From the NCBI GenBank assembly GCA_031416075.1, contig JANOSY010000091.1, forward strand, positions 32,001-96,000: a stretch of DNA of 64,000 nt. Direction: 5' to 3'. How positions within the stretch are numbered: the first letter of the stretch is position 1; every line of letters begins with the position of its first letter. A program made the translations under genes and the position numbers. The DNA comes from Candidatus Tenderia sp. GTDB taxonomy: Bacteria > Pseudomonadota > Gammaproteobacteria > Tenderiales > Tenderiaceae. The notes under the pieces were generated by a model. The model saw only the letters and a program-made list of their open reading frames with translations. It was not told the DNA's origin and made no database searches. Of the stretch, positions 1,424 through 39,805 are shown piece after piece.

Positions 1424-1435
1424 TGATTCCCTCCC

Positions 1436-1864: not shown

Positions 1865-1931
1865 AGTGAACGCTCTCCTCGACTAGTATTAAATGAAATT
1901 TGAAACATTATATTATTATGAGCATGTCCGT

Positions 1932-3704: not shown

Positions 3705-3735
3705 ACACGCCGCCCAGACACTCCCCAATGCCCAA

Positions 3736-5555: not shown

Positions 5556-5635
5556 CAACGCACTTCTCCACGTATTACGGTTTTCTAACATGCCCTTAAC
5601 GATACTGTCAAACAACAGCGCTATTTATTCACTAC

Positions 5636-12290: not shown

Positions 12291-12950
12291 ATGACGCCGC
12301 TGATCAAGATAAAAATTGAACCAAACCCTGTTATTGATAAATTTTTGTCACACTGCCACCGCCGCAACTACCCCAAAAAGAGCATTATTATCCACGGTGG
12401 CGACACACCAAACTCGCTCTATTACATCACCAAGGGGTCGGTCAGTGTCATTGCCGAGGATGACAGTGGCCATGAAATTGTGCTGGCGTATCTAAATAGT
12501 GGTGCCTTTTTTGGTGAGATGGGACTGTTCAGCCATGGCCCGGAGCGCAGTGCCTGGATTCGTGCCCGTGAGGAGTGTGAGGTGGCGGAGATCAGTTACG
12601 ACCGTTTTCGCCAAGTAGCCACCGCCGAGCCGGAGCTGATCTTCAAACTGGCCTCGCAGATGGCACTGCGGCTGCGACGCACATCCAGCATGGTTACCCG
12701 TCTCGCCTTTATGGATGTCAGCGGCCGGATTGCCCGTACACTGCTGGACCTGACCAGAGAACCGGACGCCATGACCCACCCCAATGGCATGCAGATCCGC
12801 ATCACCCGCCAGGAGCTGGGGCGTATTGTGGGTTGCTCACGGGAGATGGTAGGGCGGGTACTCAAAAGCATGGAGGCTCAAGGGCTGATTACCGCCAAGG
12901 GCAAGACCATTGTGGTCAACGGTGCCCGCCAGGAGCCTATCAAGCCTTAA
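12291..12950 (+). CDS. crp: cAMP receptor protein CRP/Vfr
   Basis: FLSHCHRR.YP; FFGEMGLF; ERSAW; ITRQELGRIVGCSREMVGRVLK HTH. Confidence 0.95.
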   Translation: MTPLIKIKIEPNPVIDKFLSHCHRRNYPKKSIIIHGGDTPNSLYYITKGSVSVIAEDDSGHEIVLAYLNSGAFFGEMGLFSHGPERSAWIRAREECEVAEISYDRFRQVATAEPELIFKLASQMALRLRRTSSMVTRLAFMDVSGRIARTLLDLTREPDAMTHPNGMQIRITRQELGRIVGCSREMVGRVLKSMEAQGLITAKGKTIVVNGARQEPIKP

Positions 12951-14182
12951 AACTGCAGGCCAATCCGGCCCGAAAAGTCCAACCCATCCTGATTGATTGA
13001 CATTCCAACATCTGCCACCGCGCCAAACAGCCCAAAGCCGCTGCCGATCGTCATCATGCTGGTTTTAGTATTGCTGATATTGTGGCGGTAACCACCACGC
13101 AGACGCACATTTTTGGTCAGTGACAGCTCCCCGCCCACGCTCAGGTATTGACTGTTTGCCCCCAGCCCCACGGCCTTGGCCTCGTTAAGATCAAGATCCA
13201 GTGCCGTTGCAAACCATTCGCTACTATGGGTGACGCCCATGCGCGCCTGCGGCTGAATCCTGATAGCCCCGCCTGCCAACGCTGTTGGGTAGCGGTGAGA
13301 GATCAGGTTTTTAACCGCCAGACCACCCCGCCAGCCCCCATCACGCTTTGCGATCACCCCCAGATCGACGTTATAGCTGGGGTAGTGCTGCTGTCCACTC
13401 TGGCCGTCATATGAGGCGTTGACTAGCGACTGCAGTGAGTCAAAGGTGGTCACATCCACATACTTGGGGGTAATGCCCACCTCCAGTGTCTGCCCACGCC
13501 ACTCCACCTCGCGCACCATCGCCAGACCGACCTCGCGAATCATCGCGCCACGGGAGTGCATCCGGCTCAGCATATTACGTCCAGGGCCACTAATGACGAT
13601 ATTAAACACCTCATCGTCCGGCCCTTTTTCCGTTTTGTTCAACCCATCATCTATCAACGCCACAAACCGTGCCCGCTCTTGTGCCACGTTCACCAGGCGG
13701 GCACCGCCCACCGTCTGCTGCTGCACCACCAGGGTCATCGGTCTATCTGGCAGGCTCACCGCCAGCCCCAAACTCACCTCCCGCTCAATGGAGCGAGAAG
13801 CGAAACGGTTCAACTGGGTCACCATGTTCTGTGTCGCTGTTGCCAGATTAGTACGCGGGGTGGATGTGGCTGAGTCAGCTTTAAAGGCGATCAGCGCCGC
13901 CTCAAACAGCGACTCGATCTCGTCACTCTGGTAGTTATCAACCTCATCCTGCAGATTCTGGGGGTCAGAAAACCGCAATACCGCCGCCGCCTCCATCTCC
14001 CGTTGTGGCTGACTCCCTGGCACCAACGCGGGGTTGGTGAACACCGCGCTGGCACTGGGCATCGCCGCCACCCCCGCCCCGCCCATGGCGTTGGCACGGA
14101 CATCAAATGAGATAAACGGCACCGCCTGCGCCTCCACCGAGCACAACAGCAACCCCAGCGCCAACACCCGTTTATGCCCCAT
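12947..14182 (-). CDS. TraF-like (TraF_2 family) outer-membrane beta-barrel, paralog 2
   Basis: DVRANAMGGAGVAA..NPAL; GITPKY; NVDLG; DLDLNE; C-terminal Phe; start moved to 14182 because the 14287 start lies in a terminator. Confidence 0.78.
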   Translation of the reverse strand: MGHKRVLALGLLLCSVEAQAVPFISFDVRANAMGGAGVAAMPSASAVFTNPALVPGSQPQREMEAAAVLRFSDPQNLQDEVDNYQSDEIESLFEAALIAFKADSATSTPRTNLATATQNMVTQLNRFASRSIEREVSLGLAVSLPDRPMTLVVQQQTVGGARLVNVAQERARFVALIDDGLNKTEKGPDDEVFNIVISGPGRNMLSRMHSRGAMIREVGLAMVREVEWRGQTLEVGITPKYVDVTTFDSLQSLVNASYDGQSGQQHYPSYNVDLGVIAKRDGGWRGGLAVKNLISHRYPTALAGGAIRIQPQARMGVTHSSEWFATALDLDLNEAKAVGLGANSQYLSVGGELSLTKNVRLRGGYRHNISNTKTSMMTIGSGFGLFGAVADVGMSINQDGLDFSGRIGLQF

Positions 14183-14270
14183 CCACCCCATGCCCAGATC
14201 CCTGAATCTACTATTGATAGTGTGTTGTGCAGTGTACCCGAAAGCGTTGCCCGACCAGAACCGCATAACG

Positions 14271-14294
14271 AAAAAACCCCGCATCAAGCGGGGT
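14271..14294 (-). terminator. Terminator between the TraF-like paralogs
   Basis: ACCCCGC-N4-GCGGGGT stem plus T-run on the minus strand. Confidence 0.7.
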
Positions 14295-14317
14295 CTGTTT
14301 ACACCATCAAGCCATTA

Positions 14318-15607
14318 CTAGAAGCGAAAACCCAGCTGCACAGCTGCCGCAGTCTCGGACTCATTAGCCGCCGCCGCAATATCAATATGCACGCCAAACG
14401 GTGAGAGTCCCAAGCCAACCGTCGGCATACTGGTGCTGGAGTCACTCATGTTATGACGATACCCCAGGCGCAACTGGACCGACTTAAAGACATTCAACTC
14501 CGCCCCCAAACCGATGTACTGTGTCTCCGCATCAAAACCAAACGATTCACTCTTGTTCAGATCCACGTCCACAGAGACGGTTGTCCACTCGGCAAAGTGC
14601 GCCACCCCTACCCGCGCCTGCGGCGCAATTTTCAGGGTAGCGACCGCCGGAGTGGTCAGGCCGGGGGTCACATATGGCGCGGTATCATACTCATTTGAGA
14701 TCAGGTTTTTGACCACCATGCCAACCTTCCAGCCGTTGGCGTAATCCTTAGCAATACCGATATCCAAATTAAAGTCGTTGTACTCTTTTTTGCCCTGCTC
14801 GGCGTCGATCGAGGCGGTATTGACCCCCATCTTGTAGTCAAACGTACTCACCGATTGGTATTTGGGGGTTATCCCCACCGCAAAACCCTGGCCGACCACC
14901 GTAAACTCCCGCGCCAGTGTCAACCCCACTTCCGCAACAACCGCGCCACGCGCCTGCAGATTTGAGGTGAGCTTTTTTACCACGTCCTGGCCTGCAGCCT
15001 GGTCCATGATGTCCGAGTTGGTGGCCAGCGCAATGGCAGAGTTATTGCCATCAGCAATGATTCCATTCACCAGTGTATTATCGGCGGCTGTCACCTCCAG
15101 CATGCCCCCCCCCACTACCCGTGCGTTGGTGGAGAGTGAGACCCCTAGCTTTTTACTGGGAATCCCCACCACAAAGCCAGCACTAAACTCCCCTTGCGCC
15201 GACTTGTTGGCAAGTTTGTTCAGCTGCGTCCAAAGCGCCCCGGCCTCCACCGCCACTGCGGCGGCATTGCCATCGGTGGGCATCGCACTAAAAGCATTGA
15301 TGGCGGCGGTCAGGTTCGACTCCAGATTGTTATTTTGATAGCTATCAATCTCATCCACCAGGTTGTGCTCATCCATAAACCGCCCGCCGATAATGGGAAG
15401 TTCAAGACTGAAGTCATCATCCTGCTGCGTGGCCGCCAGCAACGCCGGATTCATAAAGGCGGCATTGCCGCTGCTGCCCGCCGCCGTCCCGGTGCCACCC
15501 ATGGAGAGCGAGCGGGGATCAATCGACTGAAAGGGCAGTGCTGCCGCCTGCGCAGAAAACAGTACCAGCAGTGGCACCACACTTTTAAACATTGTTTTAT
15601 GACTCAT
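14318..15607 (-). CDS. TraF-like (TraF_2 family) outer-membrane beta-barrel, paralog 1
   Basis: Signal peptide; DPRSLSMGGTGTA..NPALLA; GITPKY; FNLDIG; GLGLSPFG; ends LGFRF. Confidence 0.82.
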   Translation of the reverse strand: MSHKTMFKSVVPLLVLFSAQAAALPFQSIDPRSLSMGGTGTAAGSSGNAAFMNPALLAATQQDDDFSLELPIIGGRFMDEHNLVDEIDSYQNNNLESNLTAAINAFSAMPTDGNAAAVAVEAGALWTQLNKLANKSAQGEFSAGFVVGIPSKKLGVSLSTNARVVGGGMLEVTAADNTLVNGIIADGNNSAIALATNSDIMDQAAGQDVVKKLTSNLQARGAVVAEVGLTLAREFTVVGQGFAVGITPKYQSVSTFDYKMGVNTASIDAEQGKKEYNDFNLDIGIAKDYANGWKVGMVVKNLISNEYDTAPYVTPGLTTPAVATLKIAPQARVGVAHFAEWTTVSVDVDLNKSESFGFDAETQYIGLGAELNVFKSVQLRLGYRHNMSDSSTSMPTVGLGLSPFGVHIDIAAAANESETAAAVQLGFRF

Positions 15608-15654
15608 GAATATAGTTACCTGATTGATAGCCGTGTCCAGACACATGTACCGGG

Positions 15655-15682
15655 CTATCGGCACCCGGTAGAGCGGCCTTTA
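15655..15682 (-). promoter_or_regulatory. sigma28-like promoter for TraF-like paralog 1
   Basis: TAAA-N16-GCCGATAG between the trpC stop and ATG 15607. Confidence 0.5.
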
Positions 15683-17588: not shown

Positions 17589-17924
17589 TCAGGGCCTTGC
17601 CTCAAGCTCTATGGTCATCACTGCATGTTTCAGGGTGCTACCACGCTCGGCGCGGCAACTGACCTGCGCCGTTGTATCCTCAACACGCCATTCACCTTGT
17701 ACAACAATGCTACGCCCCTCATCCCACCAGGAGGCCGTCCAATTATACGGGGTGATATTTCGCTCTTTAAAATAGTAGGCCGATTTTTTCTTGCACCACA
17801 CCTTGACCACTGCCGAGCTATCAACGTGCTGCTTTTCGTCATCGTCCACATCGGTCGCGACTACTTGAGTCGTGACCACACATAACGACAGGCCAATGGC
17901 CAACCACAATGAGCGATGTATCAT
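17589..17924 (-). CDS. Small secreted hypothetical protein with two Cys
   Basis: Signal peptide; ATGA overlap with the trpG stop. Confidence 0.65.
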
Positions 17925-18514
17925 GCGGGCTGCCTGTCCTGTTCCAGAAAGTTACGCAACAATTGGTGGCCATGCTGGGTCAAGATCGATTCAGGATGGA
18001 ACTGCACCCCTTCTAGGGCGAGTGTTCTGTGGCGCACCCCCATGATTTCATCAACACCACCATCAGCCATCTCTGTCCAGGCGGTAATCTCCAGACACTC
18101 AGGCAATGTCTCCCGCTCAATCACCAGCGAGTGGTAACGGGTCGCCTCAAACGGGTTATCCAACCCGTTAAAAACACCGATGTTATTGTGTCTTACTGGC
18201 GATGTCTTACCATGCATGATCTGTTTGGCGTGCACCACCTTGCCGCCAAAGGCTTGGCCAATCGCCTGATGGCCAAGGCAAACCCCCAGGATGGGCAGCT
18301 TACCGGCAAAGTAGTTAATGGCGGCAACTGAAATACCCGCCTCGTTGGGCGTGCATGGCCCGGGGGAGATCACCAGATGTGCGGGGGCCAACCGCTCTAT
18401 CTCTTCGATGGTGATCTGGTCATTACGATGGACCTGCACATCGGCACCCAACTCACCAAAATACTGCACTAGGTTGTAGGTGAAGGAGTCATAGTTATCA
18501 ATCATCAGCAACAT
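17921..18514 (-). CDS. trpG: Anthranilate synthase component II (glutamine amidotransferase)
   Basis: [11 protein letters not shown]; SPGPCTP; GVCLGHQ; QFHPES. Confidence 0.95.
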
Positions 18515-18701: not shown

Positions 18702-21700
18702 TTGACGTCCACTCACCAAGCCACCGGTACCATTACAAGAGACGGAAGAATACTTTTGGAATTGCGTCACCGTCCCAGCCCTTTCATCAGCCGCGTCGCC
18801 GCCAGTCTACTGGCACTTGTTCTATCGTTTAGCGCCGTCAACGTTTATGCCGAGCCATTCAGCGAGTATGACCTACTCCTGCTCGACTTCACCCTGGAAC
18901 GTGAGCGTTTAGCCCAATCCGTCACCGCCTATACTGTTAACAACACCATAGTGGTTTCACTGGCCGAGGCCGCCGCTGCCCTGGAGTTCCCTATCGCTGT
19001 TGATGCCGCTAACGGCACCGCAAAGGGATGGTTTCTAAACAGGGAGCGCCATTTTGAACTCAACATCAACGCTGGCACAGTCACCATTGAAGGCAAAACA
19101 ACTGCCTTAACACCCGGCGACGCCATGGTTCATGAAGATGCCATATATGTCCCACTCGAGGCGTTTTCCCGTTGGTTTCCGGCAACCCTTATACCGGAGC
19201 TTACCAAAATGGCCGTTGAGGTTGAGGCGCGGGAGCCGCTCCCCATCCAGCATCGCGCAGAACGTCGCAAGCTGGCCGGCACACGCTTCATTATGACAGC
19301 AGCATCACTCCCTGAAATAGGGCTGCCCTACCAACTAATTGGCCCTCACACCACCGATCTGGCATTGGCATACAACATTCGCCGCAATGCCGACACCAAT
19401 AGCTCGCCCGATGCCAGCCTAAACCACTCGATGCTGATACGTGGCGAACTTGCTTACATGAATTCCGCCATCTACCTGAATGGTAACGACACAAAGCCTG
19501 TGAGCCAGGCCCGCCTGACCCTGTCACGCGACCGGCCTGACACACCAACCGGCATCAGCCGAATAGAGTTCGGCGATATTTCGCCATCGGTACTCTCGGG
19601 TGCCCCCCAAACCGATATAGAGCGCGGCGTGCTGATCAGAGGCTCCACTTTCCAGGATGCATACCTCTACAATCTCGACGGCACCAAAACAAACATCAGC
19701 GGCGACATCCTGCCCGGCTGGGAAGTAGAATTACTGCATAACGGCATACGTGTTGATTACCAGATCATCGGCCCTGAAGGTCGTTATGACTTTCGCGACC
19801 TGGATCTTTACAGTGGCGCCAATACCTTTGAGCTAATTTTCTATGGCCTTGCCGGTGAACGACGCACGGAAATCGTCACTCGCTACGCCGGAGTGGACAC
19901 CATCCGCGAAGGTAACCTCAGTTATCAACTCACCGCCTCGCAAAAGGGAAAATCACTTTACGAAACCGGATTAAATCCAATTAACAATCTGCCTGATCGA
20001 GGCACAGGGCGTTACACCGCACGAATGGATTATGGCCTCTCTGGCAATCTATCCGTTCGTAGCGGTTGGAATAGCACTGTCGAAAACGATGAACGGCTAA
20101 ACTACTACAGCGCCGGATTTCGCACCGGTTGGCGCGACCTTTATCTAATCCTCGACGCCACACGCGACCCCCTGGGGGGTACCATTTGGGACGGGGCAGT
20201 TCACACGCCAGTCACCATGCGTCTGTGGGGATTTAATACCCAGTTTCAACACACCCAGTACGCCAACTCTGTCCTCGCCAAAGACAATACCACTGATCTC
20301 CAGATCACAAGCCGCAGCGCTGTTGTGTTAACCAGGGCCAGCAGAAAACTCTCCAGCCGTTTTGCCGCTGCCCACAACCAGCTCACCCTCGGCTCGACCA
20401 CGATCTATTCCGCCGACCTAAGCACAAATATCAATACTCACCGCATCGGCAACACCCTTAACTATCAAAATTTCAATAACCCGAACACCCCAGATCAACC
20501 CGCAGAGTTCATCGGCAACCTCTACCTCAACAGCAGACTTAACCCCTTTGATATACGCGGCAACATCCTCTATCAGCTCCAACCCAAAAATGAACCCCTG
20601 CAATACCAACTCAAAGCAGACCTGCGCATTTCTCAGGACATGGGCATGTATTTTGGGCTGGACTACACCCCGCTCACTGACCTCACACTCTATACCTCAG
20701 GGCTGAACTGGCAACTCAAATACCTCACCCTCTCACCACGACTCAACTATGATTCCAATAGCAACTACACCGGATTTATTTACGCCAGCACATCACTGTC
20801 CCCCAAACCTGACCGTTTGGGCGTCTTGGTTAGCGGCCAATCCATGGCCAATAACGGCGGCGTGGCCGCGCGTGTCTTTGTCGATAATGACAACAACAAC
20901 AAATTCAACCCAGGTGACACACCGATCCCCCATGTTGATGTCTACGCCTCTCAAGCATTCAGCCACGCAACAACCGATAAACACGGCACCGCCTACCTGA
21001 CTGCGCTACGCCCTGGCAAGGCCACCGACATTCGTCTCGATCAAGGCACGCTACCCAACATATCGCTGATCTCCAACCACGCCGGCAACTCGGTACAACC
21101 ACGCCCGGCCCGTTGGGCAGTGGTCGATTTTCCCGTCATTGCCAGTGGCGAGATCGACGGCACACTCTACCAGCGGCGCGACAATACGCTCCGCCCCCAG
21201 CCCGGCATGTTGGTAGAGCTGCGTGATGTCAATAACGAGGTGGCTGCCTTCAAGATTAGTGGCCGCGATGGTTTTTTCCTCTTCGAACAAGTCCCCCTGG
21301 GTGCCTATACCGTCACACTCGCTGAAGAGGCCCGCGACCGTCTGACCTCTCCACCCGCCCACGTCAAACTAAGCCAGGAAACCCCCAGCCAAACGGGCAT
21401 CGAACTTGTTCTATCAGCGCCAAAAGCCGCCCAGGCAACGCTGTTTCCCACGCAAAAAAACCGTGTATTTGTACCCACCACCCAGCAAACAACACCAGCC
21501 CCCACACTCAACAACCCTGCTAAGGCAGCCCCTACAGCGCCCATAACCACTCTGGCCACCTCCTACGTGCTACAGCTGGGTGCATTTAACAGCCAAGCCT
21601 CAGCAGCGGCAGCATCAACAGAGCTACGTCAGCGTTACAACAACCTGCTACAGGGGCTGGAGATGCAAATCGAACGCGCCGACCTAGGCCCCAAGGGGGT

Positions 21701-21824
21701 GTTTTACCGTGTATTTGCCCGCGGCAACATGGATGCAAACGAAGCAAAGGCACGCTGTAACCAACTGGGTACGCGTGGCCAGAACTGTCTGGTGGCCCCA
21801 CACAGAAATACAGCAACGCCTTAA
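18702..21824 (+). CDS. Usher-like outer-membrane protein with C-terminal Ig/carboxypeptidase-regulatory-like domains and a SPOR domain
   Basis: Signal peptide; ISGDILPGWEVELLHNG..GRYDF..L..GAN..ELIFYG.GE usher-plug-like segment; RVFVDNDNN; IDGTLY; C-terminal YVLQLGAF..FYRV..A.A.C..L....NC SPOR pattern; exact start uncertain. Confidence 0.7.
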   Translation: MTSTHQATGTITRDGRILLELRHRPSPFISRVAASLLALVLSFSAVNVYAEPFSEYDLLLLDFTLERERLAQSVTAYTVNNTIVVSLAEAAAALEFPIAVDAANGTAKGWFLNRERHFELNINAGTVTIEGKTTALTPGDAMVHEDAIYVPLEAFSRWFPATLIPELTKMAVEVEAREPLPIQHRAERRKLAGTRFIMTAASLPEIGLPYQLIGPHTTDLALAYNIRRNADTNSSPDASLNHSMLIRGELAYMNSAIYLNGNDTKPVSQARLTLSRDRPDTPTGISRIEFGDISPSVLSGAPQTDIERGVLIRGSTFQDAYLYNLDGTKTNISGDILPGWEVELLHNGIRVDYQIIGPEGRYDFRDLDLYSGANTFELIFYGLAGERRTEIVTRYAGVDTIREGNLSYQLTASQKGKSLYETGLNPINNLPDRGTGRYTARMDYGLSGNLSVRSGWNSTVENDERLNYYSAGFRTGWRDLYLILDATRDPLGGTIWDGAVHTPVTMRLWGFNTQFQHTQYANSVLAKDNTTDLQITSRSAVVLTRASRKLSSRFAAAHNQLTLGSTTIYSADLSTNINTHRIGNTLNYQNFNNPNTPDQPAEFIGNLYLNSRLNPFDIRGNILYQLQPKNEPLQYQLKADLRISQDMGMYFGLDYTPLTDLTLYTSGLNWQLKYLTLSPRLNYDSNSNYTGFIYASTSLSPKPDRLGVLVSGQSMANNGGVAARVFVDNDNNNKFNPGDTPIPHVDVYASQAFSHATTDKHGTAYLTALRPGKATDIRLDQGTLPNISLISNHAGNSVQPRPARWAVVDFPVIASGEIDGTLYQRRDNTLRPQPGMLVELRDVNNEVAAFKISGRDGFFLFEQVPLGAYTVTLAEEARDRLTSPPAHVKLSQETPSQTGIELVLSAPKAAQATLFPTQKNRVFVPTTQQTTPAPTLNNPAKAAPTAPITTLATSYVLQLGAFNSQASAAAASTELRQRYNNLLQGLEMQIERADLGPKGVFYRVFARGNMDANEAKARCNQLGTRGQNCLVAPHRNTATP

Positions 21825-21977
21825 CTCATCGCTGCCCCACCAGACGCTACGGCTTAGCTCAACCATTTGAGTAATCCGCCCCTGACATGACGAGCTCGCC
21901 ATCATAAAGTATCTGCCCCAAGGGACGCTTGGGGCACAATGTGCTTTGGATACAGAAAAGTTATTTACGCCCCCCCC

Positions 21978-22004
21978 TAAAGTTATCCTCACAACCGCCG
22001 AATT
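21978..22004 (+). promoter_or_regulatory. sigma28-like promoter
   Basis: TAAA-gttatcctcacaacc(15)-GCCGAATT upstream of the 22118 ORF. Confidence 0.5.
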
Positions 22005-22117
22005 AACCCCTAGCACGCCTGATCCCTGACAAGAACATATGGGACAGCACATCTCCGGCTAACAATGGATTCAGTGAACGTCGGTGACAAATATAATCAT
22101 TCCAGAGATCTCCAGTC

Positions 22118-22813
22118 ATGAAACCTAGCCAGTCAAAAGTAAACAACAGCTTCCCCCTGCTCGCCATTGCCACATTGTGCCTGACCGCAGCCACACCCGT
22201 AACACAGGCAGCAGAGGAGTCCGCGGGTGGGGTTCGCTCTTTTTTATCTGACCCCCAACGGGTAGGCTCGCTGACCGGCACTATCCTCGGCGGTGCCCTG
22301 ACAGCTCATCCAATCGGGACACTGGCAGGCAGCATAATCGGCTTTTTTATCGGCAAAGAGACCATGCACAAAGACCCCGAGCAGCAACAGCCCGCTCAAT
22401 ATAGCTATGCTCAGCGCAGCTTCATTCCAACAACAACTAAAGAGTCCGCAATCCCCATGTTGGCCTTAGAGACATCGACCCCGGCAACAATGGCGCTACC
22501 AGCACCTGTAACCACCTTGATCACATCAGCACCACCAGCCACCCACGTTGCCTCCGCAACTCAGAACAAATCACCGTCAATACCAGTAACGGCAGCTCCA
22601 CCTGCTGTAGCTGTATCACTTCTATCACCACCAACAATGAATACCGACCTACGCTCAATCGAAACAGTGACCATGGCGATGGACTATGTCCCTACAGCAA
22701 ACAAGCTATCGCCGCTGGAACAGATCGCCTCCCTCTGCTACGGCAATAGTGGGCAAATCAAAACCAGTAACCCCGACCTGCAGTCACTCTGCTACTACCA
22801 CCAGTCCAGCTAA
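22118..22813 (+). CDS. Secreted hypothetical protein: glycine-zipper, Pro/Thr-rich linker, C-terminal Cys pair
   Basis: Signal peptide; GSLTGTILGGALTAHPIGTLAGSIIGFFIG; LCYG..LCYYH. Confidence 0.65.
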   Translation: MKPSQSKVNNSFPLLAIATLCLTAATPVTQAAEESAGGVRSFLSDPQRVGSLTGTILGGALTAHPIGTLAGSIIGFFIGKETMHKDPEQQQPAQYSYAQRSFIPTTTKESAIPMLALETSTPATMALPAPVTTLITSAPPATHVASATQNKSPSIPVTAAPPAVAVSLLSPPTMNTDLRSIETVTMAMDYVPTANKLSPLEQIASLCYGNSGQIKTSNPDLQSLCYYHQSS

Positions 22814-23012
22814 ATTCGCAAACGTAATAGCAGGGGCTGATCTTCAGCATCGGCTAACTCGACCCACTTAAAACTTGTGTATTTATAGAAGCCACAGCCC
22901 TGCAAGAGAGCAATTAGGTGACGGGATAAATGGGGCATCAGCCGCCATTATGTGAGGGCATAAAGAGATAACATTTTACAACGCGCTGACCACCTGAAAG
23001 TGCGGGTTTATC

Positions 23013-23978
23013 TCAGTAGGTCACCGTTAAAGAGTAGGTGCCGCTATAGGCACCATTCAAATACGCCTTATTGGTGAGTTCTGTCTCCAGCGTAGCGCCA
23101 ACTTTAATTTGCAGCTCACCCATAGCATCGGTTCTGGCACCCGGAGAATTGGGGGAGGTGACAAAACTTTTCACCACAAAACGCGCCGCACTTAACCCCT
23201 CTGCCACATGGGTAAGAAATATATCTGTTGCCTGAGGGGTAATCGTCACCACATTATTGGGTGCCGCGCCGGTGACTCGAATCAAACCAATCTGCGCCCC
23301 ACCCAGAGGCAAAATACGCGCCCCCCCCGAGTTCGCCACACTAAGCGCGCCGTTCACCCCTAACGTCATGCTGGCGACCACACCAGGGTTGGAAAATGCC
23401 GCAATCAAACCAAAAGAGAGCGGCTGTGCCTCTGTAACGCTGAAGACAGACTGCAGTTGCGCAACCAGTGTCACCACGCCATAGTGGATCAAATAACCAC
23501 CATCCGGCTCCGACCAGTAACGCACACGCACCTGGGTTGTTCCACTGTAGGGGGCATCCACATACATAATGCCACTGGCACTGGTCTTAAGCGTCGCCCC
23601 CACCGGCACCACCGCCTCGCCAAAGGCATCCGCCGCCAACGTTGGATTGACGTAGTTGGTCACCTGAAGATGCTCCGGCAGACCACCGCCGCCAGCACTC
23701 AAGGTCGCATTATCCCATTGCAGCTCCAGCAATACACCCGGCGGGAATCCAGACAACCGGTACTGGCCACGGACAGCACCTCCCATCGGGATAATTTCAC
23801 CCGTATTGCTCACAGCACCTGCTGAGGAGATCGTTAGAGTAGAGACAACGCCATTTGTCTTAACCGCTAACAGACCAAAATTTAACGGCACATTCGCCGT
23901 CACGGCCGGTGCTGCAGAGACGCTGACAGAAACAGACAGCAGCAGCAACGCCGTCACTTTGCACAACCAACTCGGCAT
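23013..23978 (-). CDS. Two-domain DUF4402-like pilin (minor subunit or tip adhesin)
   Basis: Two repeats, each starting PL[NS]FG and ending VGATL...YSGT (C-terminus GAYSGTYSLTVTY). Confidence 0.72.
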   Translation of the reverse strand: MPSWLCKVTALLLLSVSVSVSAAPAVTANVPLNFGLLAVKTNGVVSTLTISSAGAVSNTGEIIPMGGAVRGQYRLSGFPPGVLLELQWDNATLSAGGGGLPEHLQVTNYVNPTLAADAFGEAVVPVGATLKTSASGIMYVDAPYSGTTQVRVRYWSEPDGGYLIHYGVVTLVAQLQSVFSVTEAQPLSFGLIAAFSNPGVVASMTLGVNGALSVANSGGARILPLGGAQIGLIRVTGAAPNNVVTITPQATDIFLTHVAEGLSAARFVVKSFVTSPNSPGARTDAMGELQIKVGATLETELTNKAYLNGAYSGTYSLTVTY

Positions 23979-24051
23979 CCACCCACTAATCACGCCCTGC
24001 TCCTCTGTGCTTTTATTTAACATCCGTATCATCAGGCAATACTGTTTATAA

Positions 24052-24081
24052 CAAACAAAACAGGGGCCCCAAGGCCCCTGT
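24052..24081 (-). terminator. Hairpin/terminator after the major pilin
   Basis: CAGGGGCC-N4-GGCCCCTG followed by TTTTGTTT on the minus strand. Confidence 0.7.
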
Positions 24082-24111
24082 GCATCTCTTTCAAACCACT
24101 TCTATTATCTA

Positions 24112-24807
24112 TTAATAATTGGCGGTCACAGTGAAACTTCCTGAATAAGTGGTTGGCTGATAAGCGGTATTACCACTAGAAATATCGGTAAGAATGGTCG
24201 CGCCGATTTTAAAATTCAACGCAGTGGAACCAAAAGCAGGGGTAATCTGACAGGCATATAGCGCATCAACAACATTAGTGCACAGGCTATTTGCTGTGCC
24301 TCCGGTAACAGTCCCCACCGTAAACTGGGCCAACTGGAACTTGGCCACAGATGGATCAGCAGCCGAAACCAATACCAGGTTGCTGCCCGTAAGCGCACCG
24401 ATATTTGTGCCAAAGGTAGCGGCACCTAACGCCACGGTACTCACCTCTGCACCCGGTAGTGTCAGCGTGACAGGAGTGGTCGAACTGACCGCAATAGTAG
24501 CCGAAGCAGGCACATGCCCACCCAGGGCGATCAATGGTTTATCAGCTGCGCTGCCCGGAACATGGGCCCCAACCGTACCGGCTGGACTCAAAACCAATGC
24601 CCCATAAGTCTCACCCGCGACCCCTGATGCTGTGTTGGCGTACAAGGTACCCAGATTCATGCCGACAATATTAGTAATGGCAACAGTAGTCTGCACAGTG
24701 GCAGTGACCGGAAATGATTCTGCTGACACCGCCCCACTCATGGCCATGCTCAACATGGCCACTGAAGCTGCGATAGATGTCTTGCGGAAAGAAAAATTCA
24801 TGCTCAT
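24112..24807 (-). CDS. DUF4402-like pilin, probable major subunit
   Basis: Signal peptide; VTATVQ N-terminal extension; MNLGTL; one Cys pair; FKIGATI..YSGSFTVTANY terminal strand. Confidence 0.75.
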   Translation of the reverse strand: MSMNFSFRKTSIAASVAMLSMAMSGAVSAESFPVTATVQTTVAITNIVGMNLGTLYANTASGVAGETYGALVLSPAGTVGAHVPGSAADKPLIALGGHVPASATIAVSSTTPVTLTLPGAEVSTVALGAATFGTNIGALTGSNLVLVSAADPSVAKFQLAQFTVGTVTGGTANSLCTNVVDALYACQITPAFGSTALNFKIGATILTDISSGNTAYQPTTYSGSFTVTANY

Positions 24808-24850
24808 GGTGTTGCTCCATCATTCATTCTTAATTGTTGTATGTAACGGA

Positions 24851-24934
24851 TATTTATTATTTATTATTTATTATTTATTATTTATTATTTATTATTTATT
24901 ATTTATTATTTATTATTTATTATTTATTATTTAT
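24851..24934. repeat. Perfect heptanucleotide tandem repeat (TATTTAT)x12
   Basis: 84 bp counted directly; 43 nt lie between it and the pilin ATG. Confidence 0.97.
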
Positions 24935-24956
24935 AAATTCACCGTTTCCGAGAATG

Positions 24957-24983
24957 ATATCGCCTCACTGTTCTGAATCTTTA
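24957..24983 (-). promoter_or_regulatory. sigma28-like promoter for the major pilin
   Basis: TAAA-gattcagaacagtga(15)-GGCGATAT. Confidence 0.5.
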
Positions 24984-25067
24984 AAAAATTGTAAAAAATG
25001 TTATGACCACCTCACAAATGTTTTAAACCGCTTCCGCCCCCCCCAATAAAGATAAAACCACCGATAG

Positions 25068-25949
25068 TTAACGTATCTGGAAGACCTTCTCATCCCAGAG
25101 TATGCCGGCGTACTCATCCACACCTTCGTAGGCCACACGCACCCACGCCCCCGCCGGGATACTACTGTCACGCAAGTTCACGACTAACCGGCGCTTACCA
25201 ACTTCCGCAAAAATACTGATGTTATCAGCCGTCCCGATACGCTCTACAGCAGCCCCGGCATTACGCTGCATATCAACACTCACCCGCCCAACGCAGCCCG
25301 CCAGACCACTGCTCTCCATAAGCACTGCAAGCTGAAGCGGCTGCCCTAGCTCTGTTGCTGGCACAACATCGACACTCGCGATCTTTACCTGTGGAGTCTC
25401 AGCCACCTGATGTCTCACCACCACTGGAATCGCCACGGACATCTGCATGCTCACCATCAGCGTCATCCCCTTATTATCACCTTCACCCATAATCTTCTGA
25501 ACACTCATGGGCTCCGAAAGCTCCTCGACGACACGGAATATCATATGTGAGCGATACTCCCCTGGCTTCATCCCCTTTCCTGGTTTAAATTCAACACGTA
25601 CACTCTGGTTAGAATTGGGCAGCACCGTGATTTGGCGCGGTGAGAGACGCAGGTAAGGACTGGCAGACGCATGTTTCTGCTCTTCTCCCTCTTTGTATTC
25701 ACTGTAAACACCATCCTCTGACATGCGCTGCTCAAGCCACTCCAAACGATAGGTGCGTGGACCAGAACTAGGGTTACGTAAAATGACTGTGGCCGACCGT
25801 TTGTCATCATCCAGATAAACACGTTGCGGGCTGACCAATACATCCGCCCGTAGTGGCAATGCCAGCAGCATTGCCAGAATAAATGCCACCAAAACCGCCA
25901 TCGAGCCACACTTACGATACCAACCGTGCGCCACCGAACTAAAATGCAT
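25068..25949 (-). CDS. Periplasmic pilus chaperone (PapD-like)
   Basis: VLVSPQRVYL; ILRNPS; YLRLSPRQITV.PN..QSVRV; GEYRSH; SVAIPVVVR; GGAGG SD before ATG 25949. Confidence 0.85.
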   Translation of the reverse strand: MHFSSVAHGWYRKCGSMAVLVAFILAMLLALPLRADVLVSPQRVYLDDDKRSATVILRNPSSGPRTYRLEWLEQRMSEDGVYSEYKEGEEQKHASASPYLRLSPRQITVLPNSNQSVRVEFKPGKGMKPGEYRSHMIFRVVEELSEPMSVQKIMGEGDNKGMTLMVSMQMSVAIPVVVRHQVAETPQVKIASVDVVPATELGQPLQLAVLMESSGLAGCVGRVSVDMQRNAGAAVERIGTADNISIFAEVGKRRLVVNLRDSSIPAGAWVRVAYEGVDEYAGILWDEKVFQIR

Positions 25950-26013
25950 GAGGCCTCCACATCTTATTTGCCATATTAATAGATTCAAATTTCACAGAAC
26001 TAATACCGCCCCA

Positions 26014-26964
26014 TTACCAGGCCCGGACACGCAGACCCGCGCTATATTTAGGTGCTCCGCCTTCACCCTTATAAACGGCCACTGCGGATTCCGGAAAAAC
26101 CTTTATGACCTCAACCGCCCCCAGGCGGCTCTCAATTTGGTCACTCAGACGAAACAGTTGCAAAGTATCACCGGGGCGAATCAGTGCGGCACCACTGGTG
26201 CTGATATATAAACTATCACCCACTACCTTAGTGACACGGGCCATCAAGGGCAGACAGGCAAGTTTTTTCAAACCCTGCTCAACCTCGGCATTCAATACAG
26301 AATTTAATGCTTCACCCAGCGGCGTAGTGATAAACGCCCCACGCAATAACGGGCTGCGTGCCAAATTGATCACCTCTGACTCGCTCCCCTCGGCCTGTGT
26401 GGCATAAAAGAGAGACGCTATCTGGGTGCCATAAAGGCCATCAAATATCATTAGTTCAGCATCAACCTGGCGTCGCATCCGTAACGATGGAATGGTGTAC
26501 CTGCCAACACCAAACTGGTTGCGACTGGTATGCAGGTTATGAAAACGCACCGCCACCACAAACTGCACATCCAACCGGTTGGCCAGCGCAACAATCCACT
26601 CTTGCTGGAGTGGACCGCTGTGAAGATGCTGGTCACTGGCATTCACCACCAAGAGCCGCCCACTCTCATTCAGACGCTGCTGCAACAGCTCAGACCAGCG
26701 GGCCGTTAATCCCGGCAGATCGCCAGCATCTTGCGGCTGCAATAGTTCCGTCGCCAGCACCGCTACCTTTTTACGGTAGGAAAAGGGCGCACCCTGCTCT
26801 GGATCACAAAAATCTACTTCCACTGGCTTTGCAGGTTCAACCACTTCACTCTGCACCTCAACAACAGCCTGTGGTGCCACCACCTGACCAGCACAACCGA
26901 CCAGCAACAACAGGGCAATAGCCCCGCTGAGAAATTTCGCTAGTAAATTTGTCATGGTCAACAT
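26014..26964 (-). CDS. FlgT-like lipoprotein (flagellar assembly protein T, middle and C-terminal domains)
   Basis: Lipobox LLVGC; YRKKVAV; ACLPLMARV..V.GD..YI..G....IRPGD.L. Confidence 0.68.
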   Translation of the reverse strand: MLTMTNLLAKFLSGAIALLLLVGCAGQVVAPQAVVEVQSEVVEPAKPVEVDFCDPEQGAPFSYRKKVAVLATELLQPQDAGDLPGLTARWSELLQQRLNESGRLLVVNASDQHLHSGPLQQEWIVALANRLDVQFVVAVRFHNLHTSRNQFGVGRYTIPSLRMRRQVDAELMIFDGLYGTQIASLFYATQAEGSESEVINLARSPLLRGAFITTPLGEALNSVLNAEVEQGLKKLACLPLMARVTKVVGDSLYISTSGAALIRPGDTLQLFRLSDQIESRLGAVEVIKVFPESAVAVYKGEGGAPKYSAGLRVRAW

Positions 26965-27038
26965 GAAACGTAGTCCCTGATCCCAAACAATATGTGCATC
27001 ACCCGGCGGCCAATCAACGCGGGCATATTTACCTGGAA

Positions 27039-27054
27039 AGCAAAATGCGCGCCA
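27039..27054 (-). promoter_or_regulatory. sigma54 -24/-12 promoter
   Basis: TGGCGCG-CATT-TTGCT matches TGGCACG-N4-TTGCW with exact spacing, ~75 nt upstream of the flgT-like gene. Confidence 0.65.
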
Positions 27055-27280: not shown

Positions 27281-28759
27281 TTACTCCAGGCCTGCTTCAG
27301 CCATGGCGACGGCGCGAAAGATAGCCCGCCCCTTGTTCATGGTCTCATCCCATTCGTTCTTAGCCACTGAGTCAGACACCACACCGGCACCGGCCTGGAT
27401 ATGCAGCTTGCCGTCTTTGATAACGGCCGTGCGAATGGCGATGGCGGTATCCATATTGCCGTTCCAACCAATGTAACCCACGGCACCACCATAGACACCC
27501 CGTTTCACCGGTTCCAGTTCGTCAATAATCTCCATGGCACGAATTTTTGGCGCGCCAGAGAGCGTACCCGCCGGAAATGTGGCGCGCAGTACATCCATCG
27601 CATTGAGTCCTGGCTTTAACTTGCCGGTAACGTTGGAGACGATGTGCATGACGTGTGAATAGCGCTCAACCGCCATCTTTTCCGTAATTTTGACAGAACC
27701 AATCTCGGCAACACGACCCACATCGTTGCGTCCCAGATCGATGAGCATCAGATGCTCCGCCAGCTCTTTGGGGTCGGCCAGTAACTCTTGCTCCAGTGCC
27801 AGATCCTGCTCCGGTGTCGCCCCCCGTGGCCGGGTGCCCGCAATTGGACGCACTGTCACCTCACCATCCTCCAGCCGTGTCAATATCTCCGGTGAGGAGC
27901 CCACCACCTGGAACCCATCCAGATTGAGATAAAACATATAAGGTGATGGATTGAGACTCCGCAGGGCGCGGTAAAGATCCAGCGGCTCCGCTGTATATGG
28001 AATGCTCAGGCGTTGCGACAATACCACCTGCATACAGTCACCCTCAACGATGTACTGCTTAACTCGATTCACTGCTGACTCAAACGCCCGCTTGCCAAAG
28101 CCGGATCTGAAGTCGTTTTCAACCACACGGCGGGGTTCACGCTTCTTGGCGGCGGCTGGCAACGCCTGATGGCGTAGCTGCCCCACAATCCCATCGAGAC
28201 GTTTTTGCCCCTGCTCGTACGCCCCCTCCAGGGCAGGATCAACATGCACAACCACGTATAATCGGCCACGCAGATTATCAAAGACCACCACCTCATCCGA
28301 GACCAACAACAGGATATCCGGCACATCAAGGGGGTCTTCATTCACCTTATCCTTCAAACACGGCTCGATATAACGGACAGTATCGTAACCAAAGTAACCC
28401 ACCAGACCGCCAGTAAAGCGCGGCAAACCTGGAACGGCAGGTACTTTGAACTGGGCGCGAAAGGCTTCAATGGCGGCCAGCGGATCATCCACCGTGGTTT
28501 TGCCCAACACTTTGCCTTCGTGTTCGACACTCATCTCATAGCCACGCACCTTAAGCACCGTGCGGCACGGCAGGCCGATGATTGAATAACGGCCCCACTT
28601 TTCACCGCCCTCAACAGACTCAAAGAGATAGGAGTAGGGTTCACTGGCCAGTTTCAGGTAAATACTTAGAGGAGTATCCAGATCCGCCATCACTTCACGC
28701 ATCAGCGGTATGCGGTTATAACCCTCCGCAGCCAGGGCATCGAACTGTTCATGAGTCAT
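27281..28759 (-). CDS. trpE: Anthranilate synthase component I
   Basis: DLDTPLS; [15 protein letters not shown]; NPSPY; RPIAGTR; [13 protein letters not shown]. Confidence 0.97.
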
Positions 28760-28814
28760 GATCATCACCTTTCAATTACATTTATCCATAAATCCAAACG
28801 CCATACGCGGTGCA

Positions 28815-32006: not shown

Positions 32007-33044
32007 TCAGCTACGGATCAAACCATAACGAGTCAAACTCCACTTCACGGCCACCCAAGAGACCGCTACAACGGCAATAGTCACACCAATATCCCACAAT
32101 GAACTCATCGGCGTATGGTAGTACTGAGGATCAGTAGAACCTGAGATCCACGTATAACGTTCCAACCACGAGCCTATCAAGATGCTAAAGGCCACCATTA
32201 CAATTACAACCGGGTTATGGCGGTTAGGTGTAAATGCCAGCGTACAGAACGGAATGACAAACTTAAGCACCAGGAAGAGCCACCACAGACCACTCATATA
32301 ATCCATCATATTGTCATAACGAATCATCTCCTCAGGCAGACGTCCGTACCACATGATCAGATACTGAGTGAAATAGAGGTAAGTCCAGAGAATAGTCATC
32401 GCCAGCATAAACTGAGCCATAAAATTGAAGATATAACTCTGAACACCACCCGCTACCAATTTGCCTGAGCGATTCAAGAAGAACAGGAAAATAGTGAAGA
32501 AGGCCAAGAACATATGAAAATTACTTTGGAAATGGTACGCACCATAACTGGCACTATGCCAACCAGGGTTCAACCCTTGAGTCATTTCGAAGTCCCACGC
32601 CACCATCGAGCCATAAGCAAAATAGAAAAATGGAATCAGCAGGGCAATATTCCGGAATCGACGTTGCGCCACATATGAACTATCAATTGCGGCTTGATGT
32701 TGAAGCTTAATAAACAGCAGGTAGAGGCCTGCAACAACCAAGAAACCTACCACCTCCCTCGCAACCAGGAATGTATAATTGTGCCAACCAGGCAGATGAT
32801 GCTCAGCATCATGTGCATGAGTCAGCCATGGAAACGCAGCCTCACCAGACGCCAGTATTATCAACAACAATACAAACGCTATTGGAAATAACACCGCCAG
32901 CGAACAGGCCAGATAACGAACCTGGAAACGCCATTGACCGTTACACAGATGTAACACAGCTGACAGGGTCACACCACCCAACGCCAGATATAGCACTAAT
33001 ATGAAGTTGGTCATCACAACCGACCAGAAGCCAAAGTTTTCCAT
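32007..33044 (-). CDS. actF: Alternative complex III membrane subunit ActF (NrfD-like)
   Basis: Multi-TM; WDFEMT..PGWHS; LWTYLYFTQYLIMWYGRLPEE. Confidence 0.8.
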   Translation of the reverse strand: MENFGFWSVVMTNFILVLYLALGGVTLSAVLHLCNGQWRFQVRYLACSLAVLFPIAFVLLLIILASGEAAFPWLTHAHDAEHHLPGWHNYTFLVAREVVGFLVVAGLYLLFIKLQHQAAIDSSYVAQRRFRNIALLIPFFYFAYGSMVAWDFEMTQGLNPGWHSASYGAYHFQSNFHMFLAFFTIFLFFLNRSGKLVAGGVQSYIFNFMAQFMLAMTILWTYLYFTQYLIMWYGRLPEEMIRYDNMMDYMSGLWWLFLVLKFVIPFCTLAFTPNRHNPVVIVMVAFSILIGSWLERYTWISGSTDPQYYHTPMSSLWDIGVTIAVVAVSWVAVKWSLTRYGLIRS

Positions 33045-33077
33045 GCTACCCCTCGTAATTTATTGAATTTTTACTCA

Positions 33078-33620
33078 TTACTTGGCCACAACAGAACTGG
33101 CAGCCGCCGCATGGTCTTTCACTAGACCATTTTTAATGTAATTAACAACGTGCCAGCGTTCTTCAACACTGAGGTCATTAGAGCCACGTTTACCCTGCGG
33201 CACACCGTATGCCGGCATAACATAGCTACCAAACGTAATAGTTCCCCAGAGCCAACCTTCACTTAAGTTTTCTTGGACATAGCTATCTGTCAGACTAATC
33301 GCACCGATCTTGCTACTCACAGGTGAGTCAGCCGCACCTGTCAAACCATGACAAGCCGCACAATATATTACAAACAACCCTTGCCCTTTTTTAAGCGACT
33401 CAGGCGACACAGCTACCGGATTTACCATCTCCTTTGCTTCATCTCTACTAGCAACCTTGGTTGGAATCCCTGTAGTTGGAATAGAGCGCTCAGGAAAGGG
33501 GATCATCACCCCCTCTTGAGGCTTGATGCTCGGCTGGTTCATCATATCGGTTGACCATGGCCAAGCCAACGCCGCAGTTGGCACCATCAGTGCGCCCGCA
33601 ATTACACTCTTAAACCTCAT
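33078..33620 (-). CDS. actE: Alternative complex III monoheme cytochrome ActE
   Basis: DMMNQPSIKPQE; CAACHG; MPAYG; ERWHVVNYI. Confidence 0.82.
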   Translation of the reverse strand: MRFKSVIAGALMVPTAALAWPWSTDMMNQPSIKPQEGVMIPFPERSIPTTGIPTKVASRDEAKEMVNPVAVSPESLKKGQGLFVIYCAACHGLTGAADSPVSSKIGAISLTDSYVQENLSEGWLWGTITFGSYVMPAYGVPQGKRGSNDLSVEERWHVVNYIKNGLVKDHAAAASSVVAK

Positions 33621-34144
33621 TGCGACACCTCTTCACGAATTTCCAGCACTTTATGCTTTTTGAACAGTTCCTTGATCGGATTGATATTTTTTTCATCCAG
33701 CTCCAACAACACCCCAATCTGGTCAAGACTGACCTTCTCGGAGTAAAGCGGATGACGTCTGGTGAACAAACGCGCACTAATGAAAAAGCCGACGACGGTT
33801 GACAGCACTCCGAAGAGGATTAGTAGTTCGTAGGTCAGCACTATATTAGATGGCAAGGGTATAACAGGTTTACCGCCCTGCGGCTGAACCAGGAAACTTG
33901 CCTGAGCTGAAGCCAGGAACAGAAAACCAAAACACATTCCAAAAATCGCACCAAACAAAGTGAACTTCGGTATTGGCGAGCCTCTGTCTCCTAAAACCTC
34001 TTCAATTTCAGGATGCTCTATTGGAGACTTCAAGGTCACATCATCAACCGAAACCCCTGGAACCGCATGGTTACGGATCTCAGCGATGGTGGCAAACGCC
34101 TCCTCAAAGTTGCTAAACAAACCCATGACGTAATAACGCTTCAT
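33617..34144 (-). CDS. actD: Alternative complex III subunit ActD (DUF3341-like)
   Basis: GLFS; SPIEHPE; two TM helices around GGKP...P....TYEL. Confidence 0.82.
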   Translation of the reverse strand: MKRYYVMGLFSNFEEAFATIAEIRNHAVPGVSVDDVTLKSPIEHPEIEEVLGDRGSPIPKFTLFGAIFGMCFGFLFLASAQASFLVQPQGGKPVIPLPSNIVLTYELLILFGVLSTVVGFFISARLFTRRHPLYSEKVSLDQIGVLLELDEKNINPIKELFKKHKVLEIREEVSQ

Positions 34145-34146
34145 GA

Positions 34147-35556: not shown

Positions 35557-35597
35557 AGGTCACACCACTTTATATTTGTATGGCCATTACGGACGGA

Positions 35598-38649: not shown

Positions 38650-38712
38650 AACAATTCATCCGTTCTTTAGTTAATCGTGCTGGCCAGACCCGAAGATCCT
38701 AGACCCACCCAG

Positions 38713-39348: not shown

Positions 39349-39805
39349 CTCAATCCTCGATCTGTTTAATAGATCCCAAAAGGTATCATTGTAAATATTA
39401 AGAACCATACCCCAGAGCTGAAAATTTAGAATGCGCCAACGTACAGAGAGCGCACGCCATTCATGCTTTGATTTACTGGTACAGATGAACCCCAATTTTA
39501 ATGAACCGGATACACTAAGACCAAACCACAATAGCCCTGCATCCCGCCCTAATACTGCCACCCTGTTTTAATACGGGGTTTTTGTTTTTCCGGGGGTTTT
39601 CCCCGCTTTCCTGCTACTCGACCTAGCCTTTCTATTTATTAGCCCCAACCATTGATCGGGTTTAACTGGTCGTTATTGTTAAGCAATTCCGCATCCTAGA
39701 CCAGTTTTAAGTCGAATGTCAACGCCCAATACTCAACAAATAAAAGATATCAGAACATTCCATTAATTTTGCTGCTGCGATGCTGGATATTCCTACCTTC
39801 TTTTT

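Follow-up and report, generated by a model that had tools for sequence, protein, structure and literature searches.

A divergent chaperone-usher pilus locus of Candidatus Tenderia sp. with a flagellin-type promoter and leader hairpin at its major pilin gene

Introduction

Adhesive pili and flagella are usually regarded as oppositely regulated. To our knowledge, the ushers of chaperone-usher pili are considered to work without dedicated outer-membrane partners. Ushers are sorted into alpha, beta, gamma, kappa, pi and sigma clades, and subunits of the SCPU family have a conserved disulphide. The accessible part of PMC4654587 covers some of this clade scheme and describes the Pro60/Arg89 pair of EcpB, a non-classical chaperone spacing. 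Here we describe a gene cluster from Candidatus Tenderia sp. (assembly GCA_031416075.1, contig JANOSY010000091.1) that lies within a 64,000-nucleotide stretch of DNA, hereafter the window. The locus is a real, intact and divergent chaperone-usher locus, and what is new about it is a module of an FlgT-like lipoprotein and a glycine-zipper protein, together with a flagellin promoter-plus-leader apparently captured by the major pilin gene.

Two described systems outside the chaperone-usher pathway bear on these features. Regulatory flagellin leaders include those of Caulobacter, where FlbT is involved, and the stem-loops of Salmonella fliC. In Campylobacter jejuni, the flaA-CsrA pair involves a structured 5' leader on a sigma28-dependent flagellin mRNA, according to the accessible text of PMC4894983. 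In type IVa pili, TsaP, which has FlgT-C-like domains and a cell-wall-binding domain, forms a ring around the PilQ secretin (10.1101/2020.05.29.123786, part of the text). Our literature search found no paper on DUF4402. Titles and the opening lines of abstracts gave no chaperone-usher system linked to FliA (sigma28), although subscription papers and supplements may hold one. Searches on usher classification and on ushers with SPOR domains and pili gave nothing on this locus in the accessible literature, and subscription papers and supplements may describe it.

Results

Six open reading frames lie between trpG (17921-18514) and trpE (27281-28768). A first-pass annotation of this DNA had listed them together with sigma54- and sigma28-type promoters, a tandem repeat and a hairpin, and the positions and strands of all of these were borne out. 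The host genome has fliC and fliA, both above their cut-offs, and the host appears to be a flagellated gammaproteobacterium.

The largest open reading frame (18702-21824, plus strand) encodes a divergent outer-membrane usher with a C-terminal SPOR (cell-wall-binding) domain (Pfam E 1.1e-7). Its start is probably near 18756; a near-identical database protein has 1022 residues, compared with 1040 for the open reading frame. The window protein had no match to Pfam Usher (PF00577), for which one homolog reached E 0.0021, short of the cut-off, and sequence-only searches of the PDB did not recognize the barrel. The fold emerged from an AlphaFold (AF2) model of residues 48-912, built from 83 sequences, with a predicted local distance difference test (pLDDT) score of 90.4 and a predicted template modelling (pTM) score of 0.75. 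Counted by hand from the DSSP list, the model contains an N-terminal domain, six strands, a plug, 18 further strands and two C-terminal domains. The top 16 rows listed by Foldseek were all FimD or PapC, with FimD best at E 8e-29. FimD and PapC also led the VIA comparison (Z 19.7, root-mean-square deviation [rmsd] 6.2, 549 residues), in which the first unrelated barrel had a Z of 14.3. The N-terminal domain was largely unaligned, with most VIA alignments beginning at about model residue 159. As modelled, the protein is a true usher with a 24-strand barrel, in line with the usher-like assignment of the first-pass annotation. SPOR was annotated on 26 of 82 usher homologs and LysM on three of the 82, so cell-wall-binding tails recur among them. 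SPOR domains favour septal glycans. In three core loci (L121, L126, and L137), SPOR is encoded by a separate gene immediately 3' of the usher gene and is not fused to it.

Two pilin-type subunits are encoded on the minus strand. The 231-residue major pilin (24112-24807) is DUF4402-like and has a candidate donor strand at its N terminus, after the signal peptide. It had no Pfam match; its Atlas feature matches were DUF4402 clusters at 0.93, and it had 144 profile relatives. The second subunit (23013-24032, 339 residues) has two DUF4402 domains in Pfam. Sequence-only searches of the PDB did not recognize the pilin. The best match of the two-domain model (pLDDT 93.7) was a CfaB-CfaB fusion (Foldseek E 1.4e-5; Z 8.2, rmsd 9.8, 239 residues). 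Its residues 1-156 matched donor-strand-complemented pilins, namely the pilin domain of CfaE (Z 7.8, rmsd 3.6, 125 residues) and donor-strand-complemented (DSC) EcpA (Z 7.8, rmsd 3.6, 127 residues), and residues 155-299 matched the pilin domains of CsuA/B, PapG and CupE (Z 6.0-6.6). Profile alignment with hhalign (probability 99.2) equated the first mature residues of the major pilin with an internal strand of the two-domain subunit, which follows the long hairpin of that subunit at residues 120-153. On its model, the two-domain subunit consists of two pilin domains, with an internal copy of the major pilin's N-terminal extension as the link between them. It would be a tip or initiator subunit completed in cis, and the major pilin would donate its N-terminal extension. 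With its first domain complemented from within the same chain and no extension left free, the two-domain subunit would be exported first, as the tip. The two-domain model (Z 6-8) and the hhalign alignment fit subunits with an incomplete immunoglobulin (Ig) fold and an N-terminal donor strand, in agreement with the pilin assignment made earlier. The pilins had no SCPU match in Pfam and no invariant cysteines, unlike subunits of the archaic (SCPU) type.

The hairpin reported previously between the two pilin genes is present (24060-24081, minus strand) and is of the intrinsic-terminator type; a strong hairpin with a U-rich tail was found in all seven loci folded. It would set a high ratio of major to tip subunits. 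Seven clusters of the subclade described below contain a gene for an O-antigen-ligase-family/TPR protein (L033:8612-10579, L049:10820-12766, L070, L071, and L076-L078), which suggests pilin glycosylation; the gene is missing from the cluster in the window.

The putative periplasmic two-domain chaperone (25068-25949, minus strand; start probably the ATG at 25949) is probably PapD-superfamily-like. Its PapD_N match was weak (E 0.049) and exceeded the cut-off in two homologs, and PDB profile matches to FimC, CupB2, PapD and WxLIP had E values of 0.006-2 only. Pro70 was invariant, and Arg99, 29 residues on, was present in 10 of 13 alignment rows, an equivalence in spacing. The N-terminal Arg motif of classical chaperones was also conserved. 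By its sequence, the chaperone is weakly recognized and combines features of two types, an N-terminal Arg as in classical chaperones and the Pro/Arg spacing of non-classical ones.

The core of DUF4402 pilin, chaperone and usher is widespread. Of 388 candidate usher stretches in a metagenome scan, 373 were confirmed and 80 retained, and a chaperone and a pilin were co-located in all 28 retained loci that had at least 4 kb on both flanks. When a single protein was used as the query, 18 of 401 class genomes had the usher, with some of the matches partial, and a single-protein search of genome contigs gave one locus. In G401, a genome of the same genus, only pieces of a divergent usher with 26-32% identity were found (L198, G401:C242:3460-5555), with no FlgT_M match.

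The major pilin gene is preceded by a sigma28 (FliA)-type promoter (24957-24984, minus strand). The site scored 14.3 with a matrix made from 17 flagellin upstream sites of the family, one of them probably mis-picked, and ranked 37th among 2589 upstream regions. In all eight close loci, a fliC-like -35/-10 site was conserved at this place. The zipper gene has a second site (21977-22004, plus strand; score 13.4), with equivalents scoring 10.0-23.4 in the eight close loci. We compared gene classes after dropping 10 near-duplicate loci, with the 99th-percentile score of each locus' own genome as the threshold and with scanned windows longer than those of the background. The threshold was reached by eight of 15 first pilins of accessory-type loci vs. 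five of 51 first pilins of core loci, by four of 20 zipper genes, and by none of 17 FlgT-like genes, 61 chaperones or 82 ushers; other genes reached it in seven of 438 cases.

Alignment of the pilin leaders revealed a conserved two-stem hairpin that had been missed in the first-pass annotation. In the window, it spans 24846-24945 on the minus strand and has a conserved 3x2 internal loop and an apical loop that is expanded here. The leader pattern was present before 19 of the 20 family flagellin genes examined. The host genome has it at two places and no more, fliC and the pilin gene, compared with zero or one occurrence in each of five shuffles. In an alignment of 28 leaders, 97.6% of the cells paired and seven of the 12 pairs changed on both sides, which none of 500 shuffles reached. 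A covariance model made 35 matches in 16 of the 17 family genomes; by coordinates, these were flagellin positions, the five pilin leaders used for training and one unexplained match, which proved to precede a previously unseen major pilin gene in relative G412. The model also matched in 35 of 151 sampled genomes of the class. All 30 class loci fetched hold a flagellin gene, and in every one a sigma28-like site is offset from the hairpin by 11 bases, as it is in all eight pilin leaders. Positions of the hairpin at flagellin genes are G000:C1:1772-1819 and loci L208-L236, and tandem flagellin-like genes of about 236 codons with the same promoter and hairpin occur at L152, L153, L158 and L159 (G408, G410, and G411). 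A loose DNA pattern for the leader was discarded as unspecific.

The leader motif appears to be uncatalogued. Rfam 15 had no match at E values up to 1 in eight loci that hold the leader, and the search of the window returned one tRNA only. Identity with the Escherichia coli fliC leader was rejected because the model did not match K-12 fliC. Searches of this genome gave no FlbT or FliW, and both were rejected as readers of the leader here; CsrA was found. The accessible literature on flagellin leaders held nothing on this hairpin, which subscription papers or supplements may list, and the main text of a Shewanella cis-RNA screen (PMC2659441) is without a flagellin passage. Our best guess is that the hairpin is a 5'-terminal stabilizing stem with an internal loop recognized by a protein.

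The proposed sigma28 tier for the major pilin is therefore conserved and is stronger than had been claimed, because the pilin gene also carries the flagellin leader hairpin. Judging from these conserved elements, control of the pilin by FliA and the flagellin leader is likely. The presence of the promoter type and hairpin of flagellin before a pilin gene suggests that production of the fibre is coordinated with that of the flagellar filament. FliA-type sites also precede a type IV major pilin gene and a second prepilin-type gene (G000:C26:17713-17739 and C87:39011-39037), so FliA may govern several pilin types here; the pilA site scored 20.2, and that gene has a sigma54-like site as well.

The proposed sigma54 tier held locally and failed as a general rule. 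A perfect -24/-12 consensus (27039-27054, minus strand) precedes the flgT-like and chaperone genes. It lies 74 bases from the flgT-like start, similar to the 65-81 bases at flgA, flgB, flgF, fliK and fliL (flagellar genes named by eye). Perfect sites numbered five genome-wide vs. two or three in shuffles, barely above chance by count. The site was found in only three of eight close loci, all of one genus, and no conserved site preceded the ushers: two of 18 ushers and one of 18 chaperones of the subclade had a site with at most one mismatch. A general sigma54 tier was rejected on these grounds. The distribution of sites indicates a sigma28 tier that holds generally in this lineage and a sigma54 tier that is local.

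The FlgT-like lipoprotein (26014-26964, minus strand) is encoded by the only FlgT_M gene of the genome (Pfam E 4.7e-15). It has a lipobox and M and C regions, the latter aligning with relatives that score as FlgT_C, and has no N domain. The exported glycine-zipper protein (22118-22813, plus strand) fell short of the cut-off for Pfam Gly-zipper, and Atlas gave leads at 0.80 or lower only. All 23 ushers with FlgT-like or zipper neighbours fell on one side of a 99% branch, vs. 26 core-only ushers, in an unrooted FastTree phylogeny of 73 ushers from which 13 near-duplicate loci had been left out, and in which 24 rows were unlabelled and some long branches meet. In six loci, the zipper is fused to FlgT-like domains. 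Among the 17 family genomes, FlgT_M was detected in six, always within the cluster; a close usher was present in seven and flagellin-family genes in 16. The FlgT-like and zipper proteins mark one usher subclade and track the cluster rather than flagella, and their linkage, which recurs across genomes, is not unique to the window. In the rest of the class, FlgT copies of the flagellar type contain FlgT_N and most of them sit next to an LPP20 or FlgO gene, whereas the cluster copies are without FlgT_N and mostly bear a lipobox. The absence of FlgT_N and the presence of a lipobox set the window protein apart from the H-ring FlgT, which has N, M and C domains and FlgO and FlgP as partners. A complex prediction with parts of the usher and zipper and the FlgT-like protein scored below the mark and counts neither way. 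On balance, the pair is slightly favoured to work with the usher. Away from the usher clusters detected, there are two short FlgT-like lipoproteins that lack FlgT_N (L199:4977-5648 and L200:11547-12398; G158 and G291).

The apical loop of the pilin leader contains a tandem repeat of a 7-nucleotide unit (24851-24934) in 12.0 perfect copies. It had been reported as (TATTTAT)12, which is the plus-strand reading; the transcribed strand is the complement. Five such repeats occur in the genome, this one included; in a sister genome, G332, it has two units. It could serve as a dial for phase variation, or result from damage or misassembly. Decay or silencing of the locus in this genome, with the expansion as damage or an assembly artefact, would explain why the computed outer-stem pairing falls from 0.78 in the sister genome to 0.017 with the 12-unit repeat and why the RNA model no longer finds the window leader in full. 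That explanation is unlikely, since all six open reading frames are intact and synonymous codon differences from the sister genome outnumber non-synonymous ones in the chaperone (17:4), major pilin (20:5), tip subunit (22:9) and FlgT-like (29:16) genes; the zipper gene had 12:13. That the repeat is a working switch for pilin output is a tentative proposal, somewhat doubtful as it stands.

Identical gene order was found in five other genomes of the family. The trpE and trpG genes are contiguous in two relatives without the cluster, G408 and G410, and about 480 bases apart in a third, so the cluster reflects gain or loss at that junction. In G412, pilin and zipper genes lie at a different site, away from the trp genes, so the trp position is not essential. 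The parallel drawn previously with pyocin genes in a trpE-trpG gap extends to the insertion site only. A pyocin or phage link was rejected because the gap holds no such genes, and because of the contiguous trp genes and the displaced G412 pilins. The G+C content across the cluster, 0.41-0.59 and lowest at the tandem repeat, does not indicate a recent horizontal island.

Other features of the window were noted. A 111-residue exported protein of no known family (17589-17924) is inserted between trpG and trpD; it has conserved counterparts in the genus (53-66% for G402 and G403), and G408, G410 and G406 lack it at that place. Two tandem TraF_2-family outer-membrane barrel genes follow trpC (12947-15664), the first with a strong FliA-type site (score 21.8), and FliA-type sites also occur at crp (12291), a porin gene (5691-6761) and a DUF3530 gene (30416). 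Multiheme-cytochrome genes occupy the start of the window (683-5615). An NrfD/molybdopterin/cytochrome operon (32007-39561) resembles alternative complex III.

Discussion

The cluster very probably directs the assembly of a surface fibre through a chaperone-usher pathway that has diverged strongly, and it seems to have recruited a protein of flagellar-ring type. The phrase "undescribed pilus class" in the first-pass annotation was too strong for what is a divergent branch of a known assembly route. The explanation that best fits the whole, an adhesive chaperone-usher pilus with the assembly and regulation proposed here, is probable. The chaperone would complete the fold of each subunit; the two-domain subunit would be exported first as the tip, and major pilins would then add by donor-strand exchange. 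The SPOR domain would tether the usher to peptidoglycan. The FlgT-like and zipper proteins might jointly brace the outer membrane or aid usher assembly, as TsaP does for the PilQ secretin. Platform genes would be expressed first, with sigma54 involved in this genus only, and the major pilin and zipper protein once FliA is released. Because the pilin mRNA starts with the hairpin of flagellin mRNA, it may receive the same post-transcriptional treatment, either stabilization or factor binding. The terminator would keep tip subunits scarce, and the repeat in the hairpin loop, being prone to slippage, may adjust how much pilin is made in this genome.

Several observations weigh against this explanation. 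The pilin fold was matched with Z of only 6-8.2, a range that a common arrangement can also give, and a glycosidase and a sialidase score level with the leading structure matches of the two-domain subunit. The two sigma28 sites of the window (14.3 and 13.4) are just below the 99th-percentile mark of their own genome, in which FliA-like sites precede many non-flagellar genes, and the loci compared are related, so the counts overstate their independence. The sequences on which the hairpin structure was counted are also those that it was derived from, and the leader was not found before the pilins of more distant loci (two weak matches among 83 sources). The repeat length could be an assembly artefact. 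As to the accessory pair, G403 and G412 hold parts of the cluster but no FlgT_M match, both being cut at contig ends; two genomes of another family have the zipper in the cluster and a full-length FlgT elsewhere; and the FlgT-like proteins did not form one clade in a quick tree, where three label changes were needed, perhaps reflecting two recruitments.

The FlgT-like protein raises the possibility of a pilus docked at the flagellum, in which it would still ring the flagellar L/P rings and, with the zipper, recruit the usher, so that the fibre would emerge at the flagellar base after completion of the flagellum. The protein retains the M domain and its C-terminal region aligns with relatives scoring as FlgT_C, and in Vibrio cholerae FlgT_M contacts FlgH and FlgT_C scaffolds the T-ring, according to the accessible part of 10.64898/2025.12.02.691832. 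An LPP20 (FlgP-family) lipoprotein gene at L034:432-935, inside a cluster, and a FlgO gene at L126:13512-14114 adjoin two usher loci, and the FliA promoter and flagellin leader are common to both appendages. However, the FlgT-like protein is without FlgT_N, the part that faces FlgP in the same accessible text (10.64898/2025.12.02.691832), and no FlgO was found in this genome by a search whose control gave no match. The nearly complete genomes of two flagellated relatives, G406 and G408, have no FlgT-like gene, so it is not a required motor part, and we rejected its assignment as the flagellar flgT. Docking at the flagellum is quite unlikely.

An ordinary divergent chaperone-usher pilus, with the FlgT-like and zipper genes as passengers and the sigma28 sites as part of a broad FliA regulon, is distinctly improbable. 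The 26 core-only ushers imply that most relatives work without the pair, and many genes here have FliA-like sites, type IV pilA among them, but the pair has remained with a single usher subclade despite several rearrangements and a fusion, and the hairpin is found with flagellin genes and the pilin genes of these loci only. A product that is a thin coat or matrix of polymer, resembling a capsule or spore coat as in the coat-type precedents Caf1 and Mcu, possibly glycosylated and possibly around the flagellum, is very improbable: the O-antigen-ligase-family/TPR genes inside seven clusters, three of them scanned, and the bulk production suggested by flagellin-like expression control would suit it, but a single dedicated tip-type subunit behind a terminator suits a tipped pilus.

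An adhesive pilus made by the chaperone-usher route is the preferred reading. The pilin apparently took over the whole promoter-plus-leader module of flagellin, which points to co-production of both appendages. The leader merits study in its own right: associated with flagellin in 35 of the 151 sampled class genomes, it offers a handle on post-transcriptional flagellin control outside the enterics, with the copy at the pilin gene as a natural reporter. The notion of partner-free ushers has a testable exception in the conserved pair of FlgT-like and zipper proteins, which some genomes encode as a fusion and which parallels TsaP on secretins. The two-domain subunit resembles a natural counterpart of the donor-strand-complemented fusions made in the laboratory. 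A bolder version, which we consider unlikely, has the pilus wired into the flagellar programme at three levels: the FliA promoter, the shared leader RNA with a factor that reads it, and a repurposed H-ring protein. If this were true, the FlgT-like and zipper proteins would dock the usher at the flagellar base or ring the usher, and the leader-loop repeat would be a phase-variable dial that uncouples pilin from flagellin.

Compared with the classical ushers FimD and PapC, the window usher aligns in the barrel, plug and two C-terminal domains, but with 11-14% identity, no Pfam Usher match and an N-terminal domain that is mostly unmatched. The subunits come closest to those of the alpha (alternative) pili: CfaB, CfaE, DSC-EcpA and CooA, of the CFA/I (CfaA/B/C/E), ECP (EcpA) and CS1 (CooA) systems, were the best matches of the subunit model. 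The invariant Pro and mostly conserved Arg 29 residues on in the chaperone likewise resemble the Pro60/Arg89 pair of EcpB. In contrast to alpha pili, identity is 7-15%, a native donor strand connects the two pilin-like domains of the tip subunit, the usher carries SPOR together with an N-terminal domain that looks unrelated, and the chaperone additionally has the N-terminal Arg motif of classical chaperones. We know of no FlgT-like or zipper genes in CFA/I, CS1 or ECP systems. The second subunit domain resembles the archaic (sigma) pilins CsuA/B (Z 6.6, rmsd 4.0, 113 residues) and CupE (Z 6.0, rmsd 4.1, 110 residues), but there is no SCPU match here, the mature two-domain subunit is cysteine-free and the major pilin lacks an invariant cysteine pair. 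WxL pili are an usher-free analogue, according to the accessible part of 10.64898/2026.10.17.759780.

The leader shares with those of C. jejuni, Caulobacter and Salmonella a structured 5' end on a sigma28-dependent flagellin mRNA, but differs in its variable apical loop, which has no conserved GGA, in the absence of detectable FlbT and FliW from the genome and in having no Rfam match. The M and C regions of the FlgT-like protein are homologous to those of the Vibrio H-ring FlgT, from which it differs as a lipoprotein without FlgT_N. By analogy, TsaP is the closest precedent for the FlgT-like accessory. Both place FlgT-C-like domains and a cell-wall-binding domain at a pilus pore, with a weak profile match between TsaP and the FlgT-like protein (E 0.29), but here the pore would be the usher, the wall-binding domain is the SPOR domain on the usher itself, and FlgT_M is retained.

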